In this document: positions 50,539 to 62,416 of the stretch, in pieces
How positions within the stretch are numbered: position 1 is the stretch's first letter
Layout: each line of letters begins with the position of its first letter
NCBI GenBank assembly: GCA_963828125.1
Contig: CAWHDP010000002.1
Coordinates: 928,001 to 992,000, forward strand
DNA from: an uncultured Chlamydiae bacterium
Lineage (GTDB): Bacteria; Chlamydiota; Chlamydiia; Chlamydiales; SM23-39
Direction: 5' to 3'
Length of the DNA stretch: 64,000 nt
Translations under genes and position numbers: made by a program
Notes under the pieces: generated by a model
Databases searched by the model: none
Told to the model about the DNA's origin: nothing
Seen by the model: the letters and a program-made list of their open reading frames with translations, nothing else

Positions 50539-51838
50539 CAGGGCGATTTAACTAAAATTTTTTGATAACAGATCTGGTAACATGGCATAGTAAATACCTC
50601 ATATTTAAGGAGGTCCTATGTCACGACGTAAACCGATTGATGCCAAAATCCTAGAAGCCAGTAAGGAATTCGACGCGCATATATTTGCAGAGACTGTCAA
50701 GGGGTCGTTTTTCGATTTCCCTGATTATCGACGCAACCAAAAACGAGTCTTGTACCCCGTTTGGTACCTATCCCTTGTGATTCTCTGCGGGTTCTTTTGC
50801 GGATGCAATACTATCGAGGAAATTGCCGAATATGCCCATCTACAAGAGGAATGGTTTGCCTCGCTACTAGGAGAACCGGTTTCAGCTCCTTCCCATGGAT
50901 CGCTTTGGTGGTTTTTAGTCAAAACACCCCCGAACGCTCTCAAGAGCTATTTACAAAAATGGTTCAGTAAAATTCCTAGTTCATTGCGCGATCAACTGTT
51001 GGCGATCGACGGCAAAAGACTGAGGGGGGCTAATTTTTTGGGCCGCATTACCCATGTAGTAGAGTTGTTCGCTGCAGAAGATCGTCTATGTCTTGCCGCA
51101 GAAAAAGTCCCCGATAAAACGGTCGAGAAGAGCACACTGCCAATTATTTTGGAGCAGGTGGATGTAGAAGGTGCGATTATTTCGGGCGATGCTCATTTTA
51201 CCGTACCTGAATCAGCAGCAAAAATCGTTGATGCAAAAGCAGATTATCTGTTGGCTGTTAAAGAAAACCAGCCCACTCTTTGCGCTGAGTTGGAAAATTT
51301 TTTCGATCAGGCACATGCAGCCGAATGGGAGGAAGTCTCACATTCATTTTACCAGGAAGTCGAAAAAGGTCATGGTCGAATCGATATTCGAGAAGTACAA
51401 GTCGTAGAGGACTTGGATTGGCTGCCTAATGTTGACAGATGGAAGAACTTGGTCTGCCTGGTCGAAGTACGATCCACAAGGCAAAAAACCGGATCAACCG
51501 CAAGCGAGACGTTAAGACGGCTGTATATTTCGAGTCGTCGAGCATCTGCCAAGCATTTTGCTAAGTGGACCAGGCAGCATTGGCACGTAGAAAACAATTG
51601 CCATTGGGTAGCTGATGTGATCTTTAGAGAGGATGATGTGTTGATGGACAGAGGAAATAGCGCAGAAAATTTGGGGTTGTTTCGTCGCTTAGCTATGAAT
51701 ATGGCTGCAGTTGCAGATCCGGATAGAGGGCTTGCCTCTGTGAGACGAGCAGCGACTTTCGGTAGCGGATATCTGAAAGGAATATTGGCAAGATTTTTCT
51801 GTTCAGGCGTATCAAAAAATTTTAGTTAAATCGCCCTG
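50539..51838 (+). mobile_element. ISAs1 family IS
   Basis: 29-bp perfect IR CAGGGCGATTTAACTAAAATTTTTTGATA; 10-bp TSD TAGGTTCTTG. Confidence 0.96.
50618..51829 (+). CDS. ISAs1 transposase
   Basis: AIDGKRLRG; DA; VKENQP; EKGHGRID; RQHWHVEN..HW..DV.FRED. Confidence 0.95.
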   Translation: MSRRKPIDAKILEASKEFDAHIFAETVKGSFFDFPDYRRNQKRVLYPVWYLSLVILCGFFCGCNTIEEIAEYAHLQEEWFASLLGEPVSAPSHGSLWWFLVKTPPNALKSYLQKWFSKIPSSLRDQLLAIDGKRLRGANFLGRITHVVELFAAEDRLCLAAEKVPDKTVEKSTLPIILEQVDVEGAIISGDAHFTVPESAAKIVDAKADYLLAVKENQPTLCAELENFFDQAHAAEWEEVSHSFYQEVEKGHGRIDIREVQVVEDLDWLPNVDRWKNLVCLVEVRSTRQKTGSTASETLRRLYISSRRASAKHFAKWTRQHWHVENNCHWVADVIFREDDVLMDRGNSAENLGLFRRLAMNMAAVADPDRGLASVRRAATFGSGYLKGILARFFCSGVSKNFS

Positions 51839-53000: not shown

Positions 53001-53543
53001 TCAGGATGGTTTTAGCCAGAGGTGCTGTTCTGTAAAGCCCTCGGCTAAGGCTTTTTGAAACCACTGTTTTGTGAAATGAGGTTCGAGTTTTTTCATTTTA
53101 GGGGAAAGTCCCTGTAGATTATTTAGCAAGTCTTCCACAGATAGGCCTCTTAAGCCAAGACTTAGAATTCCTAAAGCTTTAATAGCTGCTCGATCTGCTG
53201 TTGTGAAAAAAAGGTGTTGATATTCTTTCGATATCAGCATGGCAAACGCTTCAAGTTCTCCGGCATCCAGGGCGGAGATGAAATCATTAGATAGCCTTTT
53301 AGTCAGCTTGGCAAAGTCGGCAATTTCTGCATCAATACGGGTGATCTTGCCTTGATGGACCCAGTTGGATATTAAAAAAGGTTGCTTGCCCTTGTCAGAT
53401 GAAAAAAAGAACAGCTCATCTTCAATAACTGTTCCTGGTAAAAAAATCCGATATGCATTGCACAGGCGATCCCAATAGCCTTTCTCGTGAGCATCTATTA
53501 CTACTACAGTATCAACAAGTAAGTCCTTTAATTTCTTTGTCAT
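53001..53543 (-). CDS. PIN-like protein (putative toxin)
   Basis: LLVDTVVVID; LDAGELEA; TADRAA. Confidence 0.75.
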   Translation of the reverse strand: MTKKLKDLLVDTVVVIDAHEKGYWDRLCNAYRIFLPGTVIEDELFFFSSDKGKQPFLISNWVHQGKITRIDAEIADFAKLTKRLSNDFISALDAGELEAFAMLISKEYQHLFFTTADRAAIKALGILSLGLRGLSVEDLLNNLQGLSPKMKKLEPHFTKQWFQKALAEGFTEQHLWLKPS

Positions 53544-54675
53544 TTGTCAGACACAATCCTTTTTCCGCTAGATATTGATTCAGGTCTCGGAGCTTGACGC
53601 TAAGTATTTGGGCTAGCCTGGCTTTAGATAATCTCCCTTTTTCATAAGCTAAGTATGCCAATCGGATAAAGCGATTGCCTAGAGGAGGCGCAGATGCAAA
53701 TGCCTGTTTGAATACATCGTGATCCAGTTGTGAAAATTCAGGATCTCCGAGAGCTTGATCAACTGATTTAGAGGAGATAAATTTTAAATATCGTAATCTC
53801 AATAGCATGGCCTGTTTAGATACTTGGTATTTACCTGCTAAAGCAACTATGAATGAGTAGGTAAGTTTGTTCCCCCGAACATCTAAATCGATCATTTGTT
53901 GTGGCATGAGCAATGCTGCAGCAAAGGCGTCGGCTAGCTTTTCGTTTTTGTGAAATAATTCTTCGCTGGACTGTATTTGTGAAATTAATGACTCGTTCCA
54001 TGTGATAAGATGGAAAAGCTCGTGAGCTACATTAAATGTTTGCCTCCAGCGAGCCTCTTTTTCATTAATCATAACCACAGACCCATTGTCTTCTCGATAA
54101 CAGGCTGCTGAACCATCTTCTAAAGGGCGGCTAATCAATAGCACGCCATATTCTTCTTCCAAATATTTTATTAGCAATGCTCCTGGATAATCGCCTAAAT
54201 GAAACTCTCTGTGAATTTTTTCTGCTAGTTGGTTCGCCCAGTCGATGCTGGCAGAAGAAATATCGCAACATTCTCTGGGAAGAGTTTTCATTGGTGAGGA
54301 TGGAATGGCTACCAATCTTTCAACAAGGCAATAATTTTGATAATGTTGAATGAGATTGTGTTCTTCTTTTAGTGCGATGGTTGAATCGATTGCCTTTTTG
54401 CGCCAAAGTATGGTGGGATGCTTGGAGCATTCTTTTGGTTCTTTGGAATAAAAAGACTCTGGAGAAACATTCAAGATGGTTGCGAGCTTTAGCAGCTCGT
54501 GCATTTTAATATTTTGTTCTCCGCTTTCAATTGCTACTATAGAGGCATGACTTTTCCAGCCCATTAACTCAGCTAGGTCTTGTTGTGATAAACCGCGTTG
54601 TTCGCGGATCTCACGAATCCTTCTAGCGATATCCTGGTTTCTCATAGACTGATTCCCTTGATGTAGGTCAGACAT
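53512..54675 (-). CDS. XRE HTH + ImmA/IrrE metallopeptidase
   Basis: IREQRGLSQQDLA; RQTFNVAHELFH; EKLADAFAAALLMP. Confidence 0.92.
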   Translation of the reverse strand: MSDLHQGNQSMRNQDIARRIREIREQRGLSQQDLAELMGWKSHASIVAIESGEQNIKMHELLKLATILNVSPESFYSKEPKECSKHPTILWRKKAIDSTIALKEEHNLIQHYQNYCLVERLVAIPSSPMKTLPRECCDISSASIDWANQLAEKIHREFHLGDYPGALLIKYLEEEYGVLLISRPLEDGSAACYREDNGSVVMINEKEARWRQTFNVAHELFHLITWNESLISQIQSSEELFHKNEKLADAFAAALLMPQQMIDLDVRGNKLTYSFIVALAGKYQVSKQAMLLRLRYLKFISSKSVDQALGDPEFSQLDHDVFKQAFASAPPLGNRFIRLAYLAYEKGRLSKARLAQILSVKLRDLNQYLAEKGLCLTNDKEIKGLTC

Positions 54676-54913: not shown

Positions 54914-55454
54914 TTGAGTTCACTAGACGACATTCGAGGAACGGTCAGATCTATGCGCGCGGTCAAAACGGAAAACCTGATCAAATACCTGAATGTGAAA
55001 ATTCAGGGGTGGGTCAATTATTACCGTCACTGCGTGGCAAAAGCGACGTTTAACTACTTAGACAACAGCATATTCTGGATAGTTTGGAAGTGGGCCAAAA
55101 GGCGACATCAGAACAGGGGGGCATCCTGGATCCGGAAAAGGTATTACACTACCTTGGGACTCAGAAAGTGGTGCTTCTACTCGAAGATGAAAGCGGGAAA
55201 ACAAGAATCCCGTATTCTTCTCACTCTGGCACAACACACAAAGATCGAAAGACACGTGAAGGTCAGAGCGGAAGCTTCGCCGTATGATCCCGATTTTAAG
55301 GAATATTTCATAAAACGGGAAAGAGAAAAGATGAGAAAAAAAAATGATAGCCGGGTGATATGAGCCTTAAGAGAGGCTTGAGCCGTATGATGGGAAACTA
55401 TCACGTACGGTTCTTAGAGGAGGAAACTAGGGCAACCTAGTTTCCTTACTCAAC
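54914..55454 (+). mobile_element. 5'-truncated group II intron (maturase X domain, DV, DVI)
   Basis: LNVKIQGWVNYYRH...WKWAKRRH...SPYDPDF; GAGCCGTATGATGGGAAACTATCACGTACGGTTC; ends CTTACTCAAC. Confidence 0.9.
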
Positions 55455-57552: not shown

Positions 57553-57881
57553 TACCAGCTAACGCGCCTCTATTTCTTGCCTTCAACGACTTGCCCGATC
57601 CACGCAAACAGTAGGCGTGGTATTGAGATATTAAGCCATCTTTAAAAATTGCTCAAAAAATCTGGTAAGCTTTGGCCTACTCCTGGCAGATTATAATAGT
57701 AGGGACTATTTTGATGCAACTGCTCATAAAACTGAGGTAATCACCCCGAAGCGGGGCCCCGATTACCTCGATTTCATGGGCACTGTTTTTCACCGTCTAA
57801 TCTGTGTTCGTTGAATAAAAAATTTAGGTGATTGTTTTCTAAACATTTGCTATTGTATCCAGCCATACAAGGCATGCACAA

Positions 57882-59738
57882 ATGCAAGATTCCTCAAAAG
57901 TTCAAATTTCCTCTTCTCTTATCGATCAGCTTTCTAACGAAAACTTCCAACTCCGTCAACAAATTGATACAATGACCAATGCCTTGGCTGCACAAAAAGA
58001 ACTGATCCAGCAACTCAAAGATGAAATTGCTCGCCTCAAAGGACAGAAGCCAAAACCGGACATTCCCCCCAATAACCTGGAAGGGAAAAAGAACAAGCCC
58101 GATCTATATAAACGAATTAGCCTCATCGATGTCCACGAGATGCGCGTTTTGTTCATTTCACCCGCGCAATTCACAACGAGTTTTGATGTTTCATTGTCGT
58201 CTCGCGATTTTTTCATAATCACTTCACCTTTGTTGCAAGAACGAACAGTTGAACTTTCTCGATTAGCTAGACTGATGATCAAAAATATTAGGAGAATTGG
58301 AAAACCTGGGCAACCAAGAGGCAAGAAACGTAAAAAGAAAAAAACAGTACTAGAAATCCACACCAAATTGGAAATTCAGCCTGAAAATATTCCGGATGGC
58401 GCTAAATTCAAAGGTTATTGCCATTATACAGTGCAAGACATCCTCCTTAAACCACACAATATCCAATACAAATTGGCTCGATGGGAACTACCTGATGGCA
58501 CTTACGTAACAGGGCAACTCCCTAAAGATATCCATGGGCACTATGGCCCAGAATTGGTGACTTACATCCTTCACCAATACCATGCTTGCCGTGTTACAGA
58601 GCATCTTCTATTAGACCAGCTACGCGCTATCGATATTTTGATTTCCGCAGGCCAACTGAACAATATTTTAATTGAGAACAAGAACCCTTTCATTGAAGAA
58701 GCTGCAGAGCTAATGCTTGCTGCCACAAGTGTAGAAAACCAGGTGCAAGTGGACGATACAGGCGGTCGGCATAATGGGCAAAATCAGTACACAACGGTCA
58801 TAGGGAATCGTTGGTTCAGTATTTTTACAACGACAGAAAGTAAGAGCCGGAAAAATTTTCTCCAATTGCTTCAAAATGGAAAAGAAGAATATGTGATCAA
58901 TCAAGATACCCTGGAATATCTGTCACATGTGAACGTTGCTGAGTATCTGCCTGGCTATGTCTCTCTGTCCTTAAATAGCAAATTTGCAACACTCGCAGAA
59001 TGGGAGCAATTTTTAAGGGAACGTAATGTTACGAAGGAATCAGAAGTTCGTTTTCTCACAGAAGCAGCTTTGTATGCATCTGTGATACAAAATGGAATCT
59101 CACGCGAACTGGGTGTGCATAGTGATGATGCAGGGCAGTTTTATGTATTTCAACATTCGCTATGCTGGATTCATGAAGATAGGCACTATAGAAAGCTCCT
59201 CATGACAACTGACAAGTCTCGATCTGAATTGGAACAAGTCAGAGAGCAAATATGGGATATCTATCAAGACCTTAAAACCTATAAAGAATCACCCTCTCAA
59301 GAAGTTGCAGAGAGCATAAGCAAAAAATTTGATGCCATTTTTCAGCAGAAAACGTCCAGTCCTACCTTGAATCACCAACTGGAGAAAACTCGTGACAAAA
59401 AGCAAGAACTACTTATGGTTCTGCGGAGGCCGGAGACGCCTTTGCATAATAACAGTTCGGAAACATGTGCCCGTGCGGCAAAAATAAAGCTGAAAATTTC
59501 TGGGGGAACTCGTAGTGAAATGGGGCAGAAAGTTAGAGACACCTTTTTAAGTCTAAAACAGACATGCCGAAAACTCGAGATCAATTTTTTGTCCTTTTTA
59601 CAGGACAGAGTACGTGGGAAATATGCGATTCCTCGTTTAGCAACCGTGATTTTTGACCGAGCGCTAGCGGCTGCTGCAGACCCACCCGCACGAAACTCAA
59701 ATGAAGCTGTAGAACATTGTTTGCCTCTCGTTGGGTAA
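57882..59738 (+). CDS. IS66-like transposase (single-ORF type)
   Basis: N-terminal leucine zipper; HYGPEL; VDDTG; SDDAGQF; LCWIH; PLHNNSSE. Confidence 0.9.
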   Translation: MQDSSKVQISSSLIDQLSNENFQLRQQIDTMTNALAAQKELIQQLKDEIARLKGQKPKPDIPPNNLEGKKNKPDLYKRISLIDVHEMRVLFISPAQFTTSFDVSLSSRDFFIITSPLLQERTVELSRLARLMIKNIRRIGKPGQPRGKKRKKKKTVLEIHTKLEIQPENIPDGAKFKGYCHYTVQDILLKPHNIQYKLARWELPDGTYVTGQLPKDIHGHYGPELVTYILHQYHACRVTEHLLLDQLRAIDILISAGQLNNILIENKNPFIEEAAELMLAATSVENQVQVDDTGGRHNGQNQYTTVIGNRWFSIFTTTESKSRKNFLQLLQNGKEEYVINQDTLEYLSHVNVAEYLPGYVSLSLNSKFATLAEWEQFLRERNVTKESEVRFLTEAALYASVIQNGISRELGVHSDDAGQFYVFQHSLCWIHEDRHYRKLLMTTDKSRSELEQVREQIWDIYQDLKTYKESPSQEVAESISKKFDAIFQQKTSSPTLNHQLEKTRDKKQELLMVLRRPETPLHNNSSETCARAAKIKLKISGGTRSEMGQKVRDTFLSLKQTCRKLEINFLSFLQDRVRGKYAIPRLATVIFDRALAAAADPPARNSNEAVEHCLPLVG

Positions 59739-59828
59739 TTCGCTGCCAGGAGAAATCATATTGCAAGATGCTTGCCTCCTGGGCTAGAATAATCCAGTTT
59801 TAGCAAGCTTTCAGAAGCGAATTAGAAA

Positions 59829-60305
59829 ATGTGTAAATGTAAAACAAGTTGTTCCACATATCGATGCGATTGTCTAAAAAACGGTCAAGGATGTACTGAG
59901 AAATGTCGTTGTGTTAATTGCCATAACCCTCTGAATGGACAAGACACGGAACATCTGGCATTGTGTGCTATACAAAATATTCGTATCGTCAAAGACCTTA
60001 AAGATAAAGAATTATCCAAAGAAATACTACTGCCGTGTGAATGCGAAAGCGTTCCCTTGAAATCCTTGCTGGGAGAATATGACTGTTCTAAATGCCAAGA
60101 AACTTATTGGTTTTCTTTTTGCTGGAACGATGTAGCTGCAGACAATTGTAGTTGGCATTGTGAGATTTGCAAAACATGTAGAGATTGGAGAGAGTGGCAT
60201 TGTGACAAATGCAATAGGTGTACTTATGGTGTGTCACTTCCTTGTGAACATTGCGGCAAAAGGGTCCATATGCAGATTGGTAACCGAGTCCCATTTCTGG
60301 AGTGA
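59829..60305 (+). CDS. Cys-rich zinc-finger protein with CXC/TCR-like N-terminus
   Basis: [55 protein letters not shown]. Confidence 0.8.
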
Positions 60306-60998
60306 TTACCTCAATTTTATGAGCACTTGCATTTTGATTGATGCTAATCATATAAGACCAATGAGAAAGCCCATTCGTAGTAGAACCCGCGTTCATCTGC
60401 ATGACAAATTGATAGCTGCCTTGTAAATTAACAAATGTTCCTATTCCGTTGACCAAATCTGTATTAGAGATAGATCCTGAAGGAATAAACGTTATATAAA
60501 CGGCTCCGCCACTTGTAACTGTACCTAGTATTTTTTTCTGAGTATATGTTGTAGAACCGGAATCGATCACGGCTGTATACGCGTTTCCAAAAAAATAACC
60601 GTCAGCATAATCATCAATCATCCATACCGTTTGATCCGTTACTGGCGTATAGGATGATGGGGAATATTCATAAGCTGGTAAAGTAGACGGGGGTACAATC
60701 CAAATAGTGTTTTTTATTAAATTTTCGAAATTGTTCTGATAATCTTGAGAAAATAGTAAATTGGCAAGAACGATCAAAATCACAGAAATTGTCTTCATAG
60801 CTTTCTCGTTTTAGGATGTCAAATACTCAAAAAATCTCACTCATTCAAATAGTCTCCCCTTTTGGCACGAAGTTGTATTACTGTACTTTCATCTTCAGCA
60901 GCATAGAGTATGATTTCTCCATTTCCTATATATTAGCCCTTAGGTTTCTTTGCTAGAAGAAACATGTTATGAGAAATGTTGAATCTTTTCCAGTCAAA

Positions 60999-61270: not shown

Positions 61271-62416
61271 ATGACAGCTACTGCAGTAAGGGTTCGTCCC
61301 ACAATAACTTCTACGCCGTTTTGCGATACAAGTTGTAAAGGCATACGGGTGTTTGGCCAATTCTTGGGACGAATCCTCTACGCTTTGGGCCTACTGATCG
61401 CCTCCGTAGCATACCGAATTTTCAGTAGAGATATTGCTTGTACATACTTTTCGATGGCAAGCACCCAGTTTAATCGAGGAAGCAATGCACTCGTAACATA
61501 CTGTCAGTTTGGAGAGAAGCTTATTGATTTTTCGTATAACGGGTGCGTGATCGCCCCCTCTTCAGACACAGAACAAAATGCTCTTCGGGCCCGCTATGGC
61601 TCGAATGCGATCGATCAGTGGTTGCGGATTGGGACCAAAGAGATCCCTCTCAAGCCGGAAAAGTTAAAGCGCGTGGAAACAGGAATTTGTTTAGGGATGA
61701 CTTTGGACTTTTTGAAGCAATATCTCCAACAGATGCAAGCGGGTGTGTCGCCGATGGAAGCGATCCGCGAAATCAGTTCGCGGTATGTAACTGGAGCCCC
61801 CGATCAAGCTCAACTCGCGCAAATTTTCTACTCTGCCTTAGATTCAACCCATGTGATCGAAAAGGAATGGGCTCATTTGGATGCGTCCATGGAAGGGCAG
61901 CGAACAGATACTCTTCGGTGGTTTGATCAGCAACGAGAGCAAATCCGTGCTCTTTCAAGAGAACAAATCCTTGAAAGACTAACCCAGGTACAGACCCAAT
62001 GCAACGAACGGTTGAACAACTTTCGTGTCGATGCTCTTTCCAAGAAGATAGTAGCCATAGCTCGGATTGAAACGCAGCGTGACGAAATCGCGAGCAATCA
62101 GTTCGGTCTTCAAATGGGATCTGCACGGATCTATGCCCATGAAGAAATATCTGCGGAATACGATGTTGAGTTCAGTCAGTTTCTTGAGGAGCTTCCAAAC
62201 GGTTGTTATGCGGGAGGATTCCGGGCTAAGGGATGCGCACATGCTGTCACCTTAATTAAATCATCGGATAGCCAATATTTTCTCTTTGATCCGAATTTTG
62301 GGACGCTGGTTTTTAAGAAAAATGAAATTGCAGAGAAATTATGGAACATTGGAAAGTCTTTCTATCTCAAAAATGGGTTATGCAGCCTCAGTTTTTCCTC
62401 TTGTAGGTTACAGTAA
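61271..62416 (+). CDS. YopT/C58-like cysteine protease, candidate T3SS effector
   Basis: GICLGM (Cys); AHAVTL (His); FLFDPNFG (Asp); no Sec signal. Confidence 0.8.
   Translation: MTATAVRVRPTITSTPFCDTSCKGIRVFGQFLGRILYALGLLIASVAYRIFSRDIACTYFSMASTQFNRGSNALVTYCQFGEKLIDFSYNGCVIAPSSDTEQNALRARYGSNAIDQWLRIGTKEIPLKPEKLKRVETGICLGMTLDFLKQYLQQMQAGVSPMEAIREISSRYVTGAPDQAQLAQIFYSALDSTHVIEKEWAHLDASMEGQRTDTLRWFDQQREQIRALSREQILERLTQVQTQCNERLNNFRVDALSKKIVAIARIETQRDEIASNQFGLQMGSARIYAHEEISAEYDVEFSQFLEELPNGCYAGGFRAKGCAHAVTLIKSSDSQYFLFDPNFGTLVFKKNEIAEKLWNIGKSFYLKNGLCSLSFSSCRLQ

Follow-up and report, generated by a model that had tools for sequence, protein, structure and literature searches.

Does a gene that travels inside an insertion sequence (IS) serve the element that moves it or the cell in which it lands? 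This question is raised by a locus of an uncultured Chlamydiae bacterium (GenBank assembly GCA_963828125.1, contig CAWHDP010000002.1, positions 928,001 to 992,000 of the forward strand; this whole stretch of 64,000 nucleotides is called the window), in which an IS66-family element at window positions 57716-60330 carries, in addition to its transposase, a 158-residue cysteine-rich protein, here called the passenger. The reading we favor, to which we assign a rough probability of 0.45, is that the passenger is a mobile nucleic-acid-binding accessory under purifying selection, which serves host defence and not the transposase.

The element and its insertion site

The element is 2,615 bp long and consists of one transposase open reading frame (ORF) and the passenger gene, which lies 3' of the transposase on the same strand and starts 90 bases past the transposase stop. 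The features of the element and of the gene that it interrupts are as follows.

57642..57707, minus strand: interrupted gene, 3' part, 21 codons plus stop, same frame as the 5' part (parts translated separately)
57708..57715, no strand: left copy of the 8-bp target-site duplication, ATTTTGAT, matching the right copy and the empty-site contig
57716..57744, plus strand: left terminal inverted repeat, 29 bp, GCAA end, 27/29 match with the right end
57761..57787, minus strand: second, degenerate terminal-repeat copy inside the element, forming a direct repeat with the right end at a distance of 2,543 bp (families D3, I4)
57882..59738, plus strand: IS66-family DDE transposase, single ORF, 618 aa (PF03050)
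59761..59790, plus strand: promoter-like site, 38 bases 5' of the passenger start, at chance level
59829..60305, plus strand: passenger gene, 158 aa, an ORF whose stop overlaps the right repeat
59832..59927, plus strand: CXC domain (predicted Zn3Cys9) of the passenger, residues 2-33, from pattern, profile, and model
59964..60254, plus strand: C-terminal zinc region of the passenger, residues 46-142, with 16 conserved Cys/His and an invariant W-R-x-W-H-C / C-x-Y-G core, from alignment and fold match
60302..60330, minus strand: right terminal inverted repeat, 29 bp, GCAA end, pairing with the left end
60331..60338, no strand: right copy of the target-site duplication, ATTTTGAT, matching the left copy
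60331..60798, minus strand: interrupted gene, 5' part, 156 codons, in frame with the left part

An earlier note on this sequence had claimed that inverted repeats and an 8-bp duplication enclose both the transposase and the passenger, and that the insertion cleanly splits another gene. Both claims hold: the repeats match at 27 of 29 positions with the same 8 bp on either side, and the 156 and 21 flanking codons join in frame into a gene of 177 codons, whose intact homologues (81 matches) are mostly 177 aa long and end in the same 21-residue C-terminal tail. An empty site was also found. One contig from run X6 (1 of 4 sequencing runs) skips 2,623 bases, equal to the 2,615 of the element plus 8, and a second contig from the same run joins the element flanks with the same net loss of 2,623 bases. 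The family of the split gene is unnamed, with ~177 aa and a signal-peptide-like start; the source names of its homologues include Simkaniaceae and Protochlamydia, and no match was identified in the 30 related genomes searched.

The transposase aligned to PF03050 with 45.1 bits (E 1e-11), above the cut-off of 23.1, and to NF033517 with 101.8 bits (E 4e-29), under the cut-off of 180; motifs that we take to be its DDE-like motifs occur at residues 290, 414, and 523. The promoter scan performed at chance, returning 8 sites versus 6.1 ± 2.1 in shuffled sequences.

Copies in the genome

The genome that contains the window (G000; 2.37 Mb in 2 contigs) holds eight full copies of the element at different sites, 99.9-100% identical to each other, and all eight include the passenger. 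This answers the check on other copies that the earlier note had proposed, and it bears out the note's view of a transporter element that moves as a unit. A perfect 8-bp duplication flanks five of the eight copies and none flanks the remaining three; the five duplications have no common consensus and are mostly AT-rich only. Among the eight copies, the passenger differs by one amino-acid change, and the copies are therefore too young to show selection. The element has recently been amplified and looks active.

G000 also contains two fragments of the left end, a solitary right end, and a miniature element of 72 bp (contig C2, 1098594-1098665) with its own 8-bp duplication. The miniature consists of the first 45 and the last 27 bases of the element, which is the sequence that a deletion from the internal repeat copy to the right end would leave; based on this junction, it probably arose by loss of the transposase and passenger between these two sites. 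Two full copies on contig C1 (416774-419388 and 422112-424726) face apart with 2.7 kb between them, a possible composite transposon.

Relatives of the element and its classification

We surveyed 400 scored genomes of the phylum, including G000 (one more genome was left unscored). The transposase is present in 28 of them, G000 included, and the passenger in two (G000 and G289), so that none of the 27 transposase-bearing genomes among the 399 others has the passenger. Two of these genomes have complete passenger-free relatives of the element, with GCAA ends, 8-bp duplications, and transposases 47-54% identical to that in the window: 1,755 bp at two loci in G135, and 1,977 bp in G314. The existence of complete passenger-free relatives indicates that the passenger is dispensable for this IS subgroup.

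G289 belongs to another family of the same order. Its genome retains the 3' half of a passenger, 81-84% identical to that in the window, directly before the same right repeat, and it has no match to the transposase. Relative to the window passenger, this remnant has a dN/dS of 0.09 at a dS of 0.8; such a diverged and constrained passenger before the same repeat makes the association with IS66 an old one. On its 5' side, the remnant (L083:420-1570) is cut by a fragment that resembles, by eye, the start of an IS21-type transposase and a reverse transcriptase of a group II intron. The passenger was found in none of the 102 other genomes of the same family as G000, in none of the 73 and 129 genomes of two further families, and in G289 only among the 8 genomes of its family; assemblies of the three other families surveyed are often fragmented, with repeats lost.

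Members of the IS66 family produce an 8-bp target duplication and usually end in the tetranucleotide GTAA. IS66 sensu stricto has three ORFs (tnpA, tnpB, and tnpC), whereas the ISBst12 group has a single long transposase ORF and neither tnpA nor tnpB. The window element has the DDE transposase and the 8-bp duplication of the family (at five of eight copies and at the miniature) and the single-ORF layout of the ISBst12 group in place of the three-ORF layout. It thus shares with that group one PF03050 transposase ORF, terminal inverted repeats, and the 8-bp duplication, and it differs in its passenger, in the internal repeat copy that matches the miniature junction, and in having GCAA at both ends. 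The earlier note had pointed out these ends, which are confirmed; however, they also occur in the passenger-free relatives in G135 and G314 and are therefore a trait of the IS subgroup.

Transporter ISs, in which IS-like ends surround a transposase and a passenger, are defined in PMC9330008 and, according to the TnCentral account, are restricted to the IS1595 and IS66 families (10.1101/2021.05.26.445724). The window element, with a passenger inside its own repeats that moved along in 8/8 copies, is of this kind; unlike in the known cases, its passenger comes from an uncharacterised zinc-cluster family that also rides an ISKra4-type element. The type of element is already known, but its cargo belongs to an undescribed family.

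A predicted CXC domain and a second zinc region

The passenger contains 24 Cys in 158 residues. In its alignment (114 rows), Cys/His is conserved at 25 positions, and the last ~15 residues show no conservation. The Cys spacing given in the earlier note is exact, with positions C2, C4, C8, C13, C15, C22, C26, C28, C31, and N33, and residues 2-33 conform to the pattern published for the CXC superfamily, CX[C/H]X2-13CX4-7CXCX5-60CX2-4CX1-2CX2-15CXN (PMC3447885). Eight of the CXC cysteines and Asn33 are invariant in 114/114 rows, and Cys28 is present in 113. The profile search that the note had suggested gave a match to Pfam TCR (PF03638) at 21.5 bits, albeit under the cut-off of 23.5. Using the family profile against the PDB, we identified LIN54 at E 3e-4 and the CXC domain of MSL2 at E 0.05.

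A model of residues 1-45 has a pLDDT of 75. Foldseek aligned it, in all 18 listed rows (20 matches), to MSL2, LIN54, EZH1/2, SETD2, or NSD2 (E ≥ 0.68), and the 5/5 rows from VIA are likewise CXC or pre-SET domains (Z ≤ 3.5). The highest TM score, 0.57, is that on MSL2 CXC (1.5 Å over 40 columns). The CXC domain proposed in the earlier note is thus supported by the superfamily pattern and by the uniform identity of the fold matches, with scores that are not significant; residues 2-33 are predicted to form a CXC domain around three zinc ions, as in MSL2 and LIN54.

Arg12 aligns with Arg543 of MSL2 (numbering inferred from Cys positions) and is conserved in 109/114 rows, with His in the others. 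In MSL2, Arg543 is the one base-reading residue, and its loss abolishes DNA binding (PMC4248295), while LIN54 reads DNA with a Tyr in tandem CXC domains (PMC4974476). The passenger has a single CXC domain and no minor-groove Tyr, unlike the tesmin/TSO1/LIN54 type, and it has the Arg directly before the fourth Cys that marks the MSL2 type. It shares nine Cys, superfamily spacing, and a C-terminal Cys-x-Asn with MSL2 and with tesmin/LIN54 (TCR, PF03638), and a single copy with Arg before the fourth Cys with MSL2. It differs from the MSL2 and LIN54 domains as a stand-alone prokaryotic protein with a short Cys2-Cys3 loop and a different C-terminal zinc region.

The full-length model has a pLDDT of 90 overall and <50 at residues 145-158. 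ZCCHC4 was the top match to its C-terminal part in both fold searches, in agreement with the fingers named in the earlier note, although the match is weak and not significant (E 0.05; Z 3.6, rmsd 4.5 Å over 61 residues), and there is also a weak resemblance to DHHC fingers. The CCHC domain of ZCCHC4 contributes to an RNA-binding surface (PMC6834594). The C-terminal part has tandem H-C-x2-C-x2-C units in common with ZCCHC4 CCHC, the DHHC Cys-rich domain, and the CHY-type fingers of Pirh2; unlike ZCCHC4 and DHHC proteins, the passenger has no methyltransferase or acyltransferase domain. The 16 remaining ligands suggest four more zinc sites in residues 46-142. Residues W109, W120, R121, W123, Y133, G134, N33, and P34, which are not ligands, are invariant. 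The passenger probably binds nucleic acid, as the earlier note had supposed.

Distribution and vehicles of the passenger family

We identified 283 homologues of 86-277 aa, the best 120 of which have 45-86% identity. The six closest (74-86%) are on contigs of 1.2-3.0 kb, and one homologue, from Desulfonema limicola, was automatically named a CRC domain-containing protein. Free-living bacteria and archaea account for most homologues, and many of the carriers are anaerobic and come from sediments or reactors. We surveyed the best 80 of 121 GTDB loci, with flanks of ≤5 kb and often shorter; these loci are from Desulfobacterota, Chloroflexota, Planctomycetota, Bacteroidota, Methanosarcinales-type archaea, and others. 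No IS66 transposase occurs in the available flank of any of these 80 loci in other phyla, and no passenger relatives were identified in the plasmids or phages searched or in IMG/VR.

At 6 of the 80 loci (five genome records), the gene is part of an ISKra4-type element, a unit of ~2.27-2.29 kb in which the passenger lies upstream of the transposase. The three transposases scanned scored 185-202 bits against a cut-off of 205. Both repeats were found at four loci and the left repeat only at two, and no clean target duplication flanks the copies. Two copies (L029 and L034) occupy different sites of one genome; the transposase of L034 is frameshifted, whereas its passenger and that of the intact copy do not differ. 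Another pair, from a bacterium and an archaeon, is 99.7% identical and may be a binning artefact. The passengers of the ISKra4-type element have dN/dS values of 0.06-0.18 (four pairs; another pair is saturated, and another is identical), similar to those of their transposases (0.07-0.11). The passenger is under purifying selection. ISKra4 elements with extra genes of unknown function have been reported (PMC3942029).

In our tree, 8 rows of IS66-type passengers make up one starred group. We considered separate origins of the IS66 and ISKra4 passengers, but an approximately unbiased (AU) test did not reject a single clade (p 0.505; 78 rows, with near-duplicates and eukaryote-like rows left out). 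The passenger may therefore have passed from one element, as the donor, to the other; the sole basis for two capture events is that the transposases are unrelated and the gene orders opposite.

A layout like that of an integron cassette, with an attC-like site and a matching upstream core, was found at 3 of 73 testable loci, compared to 3 of 374 neighbouring genes, one of which is the next cassette of the same array. A strict attC pattern identified one locus and a relaxed pattern with the upstream core identified three, the pattern having been relaxed after L052 and L058 were seen by eye. Integron cassettes often encode phage defence (10.1101/2024.07.02.601686, 10.1101/2024.07.02.601719). No pair of repeats with a target duplication around the gene was found at the 80 loci in a generic search. 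Segments of 530-620 bp that are ~97% identical occur in different flanks at L046/L053 and L005/L008, once across phyla; no attC or terminal repeats were found there, and the segments may reflect a further, unexplained route of movement or a binning error.

Defence neighbourhoods

The gene lies directly before pglZ of a BREX system at 6 of the 80 loci, all archaeal, behind a conserved gene of ~120 aa; at the two of these with upstream genes scanned (L026 and L067), it sits between pglX and pglZ. The unnamed ~120-aa gene precedes the CXC gene at 9 archaeal loci (e.g., L026:4609-4977), inside and outside BREX, and has a weak helix-turn-helix/MerR-like lead. At L076 the CXC gene is between jetB and jetC of a Wadjet system, and at L057 it is between a Dcm/McrB/LlaJI cluster and DarTG. 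In total, a defence, restriction, toxin-antitoxin, or nuclease gene is among the scanned first or second neighbours at 27/80 loci, and 40/80 loci are counted once mobile-element contexts are added; this tally was made by hand from 147 nearest and 78 of 110 second neighbours (long proteins cut to 600 aa), it has no matched control genes, and related loci in it are not independent.

Accessory systems embedded in BREX loci have been described (PMC11341690, PMC12839542). The passenger family resembles such accessories (PARIS, Schlafen, and other back-up effectors) in having homologues inside BREX-1 operons that adjoin a Schlafen-type gene, and it differs from them in that nuclease and toxin domains are absent. 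In its main text, the 2026 BREX survey (PMC12839542) has 0 occurrences of CXC or tesmin; its supplements could list the gene. Among the literature matches listed, none describes a prokaryotic CXC family (most subscription journals, supplements such as that of PMC3942029, and ISfinder were outside this scope), and the preprint 10.64898/2026.06.07.730663 concerns a different Cys-rich repeat.

Eukaryote-like members and the host

The family profile matched 724 representatives at E ≤ 0.001. Among 57 that were scanned, longer proteins join the module or its C-terminal part to RING, HMG-box, chromo, and TRF2/HOY1 PH domains, and one eukaryote-like member is named from the oomycete Globisporangium; in Atlas, unnamed rotifer and ascomycete clusters appear at 0.90 and 0.76. 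Of 150 listed proteins, 11 are >200 aa and carry a CaaX-like C-terminal motif. P0163, P0178, P0185, P0203, P0246, and others combine such ends with the module fused to RING or TRF2/HOY1 PH domains, apparently an undescribed protist or oomycete architecture.

With 12 eukaryote-like queries, the window protein came first once, by a margin of 1 bit, and otherwise between ranks 62 and 175; judged by these rankings, it is not specially close to the eukaryote-like members. The trees give no direction between prokaryotes and eukaryotes because of long branches, and the 283 prokaryote-sized homologues lead us to reject a recent eukaryotic capture. The label "eukaryote-type" in the earlier note therefore does not stand as a statement of origin: the family is common among free-living bacteria and archaea, and the relatives closest to the passenger are stand-alone genes of prokaryotic size.

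Consistent with Chlamydiota, G000 has four strong nucleotide-transporter genes and a gene for an Hc1 histone-like protein. Based on these genes and on the source names of the split-gene homologues, the host is probably an environmental chlamydia. The chlamydial marker PF03504 had no match anywhere, controls included.

Other genes in the window

The window encodes an ISAs1-type transposase (50618-51829, plus strand; DDE_Tnp_1_assoc and DDE_Tnp_1) and a group II intron maturase fragment (54914-55363, plus strand), which make the region rich in mobile DNA. A two-gene unit at 53001-54675 (minus strand) encodes a 387-aa helix-turn-helix and IrrE/M78 metallopeptidase protein followed by a 180-aa protein that is PIN-like by eye, possibly a regulatory or toxin-antitoxin pair. 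A 381-aa ORF at 61271-62416 (plus strand) matches Peptidase_C58 (YopT-type cysteine protease) above the cut-off over 40 residues and is a possible secreted effector.

Discussion

A defence cargo is likelier than a helper of the transposase because the family occurs on two other vehicles and inside anti-virus clusters in unrelated microbes. In the mechanism we propose, a recently amplified, single-ORF IS66 transporter element carries a member of an undescribed mobile Cys-rich family. Arg12 is predicted to reach into the minor groove of DNA; four more zinc ions would be bound by residues 46-142, which would also present a second, Trp/Arg-rich binding face. Since no catalytic domain can be recognised in it, the protein would work by sensing foreign DNA or RNA that enters the cell or by binding it stoichiometrically, either by itself or together with a system such as BREX. 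Both partners would profit: the IS from a useful cargo, and the gene from a means of transport. It is possible, though we hold it doubtful, that the passenger represents a new single-gene prokaryotic defence family built on the CXC Zn3Cys9 DNA-reading domain, with at least three vehicles, slots in BREX and Wadjet, and the entire module conserved in protists and fungi, and with a possible role as the prokaryotic root or the immune counterpart of the eukaryotic CXC domain.

Several observations weigh against a role in defence. The passenger has no recognisable catalytic or effector domain in Pfam, NCBIfam, or PADLOC; it has no NCBIfam or above-cut-off Pfam match, and neither the window protein nor P0048 matched a PADLOC 2023 family at E ≤ 0.01. 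None of the structural scores reaches significance (Foldseek E ≥ 0.05; Z ≤ 3.6). About half of the loci lie beside ordinary metabolic genes, the neighbour tally is uncontrolled, and the archaeal BREX-type loci constitute one group. The CaaX-like ends and the likeness to DHHC fingers point to membranes or proteins rather than DNA, and the host appears to be an intracellular chlamydia, in which phage pressure is uncertain.

That the passenger instead serves the element, as a DNA-binding regulator or target-selection factor of the transposase, is the proposal of the earlier note, and we consider it unlikely. It would fit the predicted DNA-binding domain, the placement 90 bases past the transposase stop on the same strand, and the retention of the gene under purifying selection in two different IS families; but one protein would then need to serve two unrelated transposases, complete GCAA-ended relatives in G135 and G314 and all 27 other transposase-bearing genomes among 399 do without it, none of the 80 loci in other phyla is near this transposase, and the five duplications have no consensus beyond being mostly AT-rich. 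Also unlikely is a metallothionein-like metal or redox buffer spread as stress-resistance cargo. The 24 Cys in 158 residues, the 25 conserved ligand positions, and the many anaerobic carriers from sediments and reactors would agree with such a buffer, and Zn3Cys9 clusters occur in metallothioneins, too (PMC3447885). However, the invariant non-ligand residues and the ordered predicted fold (pLDDT 90) suggest a specific binding surface, and no metal-resistance gene cluster was found among the scanned neighbours.

An addiction gene, small and toxin- or antitoxin-like, that stabilises its mobile DNA would account for the toxin-antitoxin genes near 9/80 loci, the cassette-like copies, and the adjoining ~120-aa gene with its weak helix-turn-helix lead at 9 archaeal loci; we regard it as rather improbable, since neither IS contains a partner gene, eight intact copies are tolerated in one genome, and no toxin family matches. 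Chance capture of a neutral gene, copied through IS activity, has in its favor the passenger-free relatives, the truncated remnant in G289, and the eight copies too young for a signal of selection (one amino-acid change), but it is very unlikely in view of the dN/dS of ~0.09 between G000 and G289 at dS 0.8 and of 0.06-0.18 in the ISKra4-type element. Least credible is the host-directed effector that the earlier note had offered as another option, namely an exported mimic of eukaryotic chromatin CXC proteins. Its attraction lies in the four nucleotide-transporter genes and the Hc1 gene, which are Chlamydiota-like, and in the eukaryote-like proteins in which the whole module is joined to HMG-box, chromo, and RING domains. 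The passenger, however, starts with Met-Cys-Lys-Cys, which leaves no room for an N-terminal secretion segment before Cys2; the gene is in only 2/400 genomes of the phylum and in none of the 102 others of the family; homologues come mainly from free-living bacteria and archaea, and most carriers live without a eukaryotic host; and the window protein was the top match for 1 of 12 eukaryote-like queries only.

Work on CXC domains has so far dealt with their reading of DNA in eukaryotes, in dosage compensation and in control of the cell cycle. A prokaryotic family of small proteins with the MSL2-type reading residue, unrelated vehicles, and places in defence operons is a candidate anti-phage or anti-plasmid factor, and, as a stand-alone prokaryotic CXC family, it bears on the origin of CXC domains. 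The occurrence of the same type of IS with and without the passenger provides a direct handle on what transporter ISs gain from their cargo.

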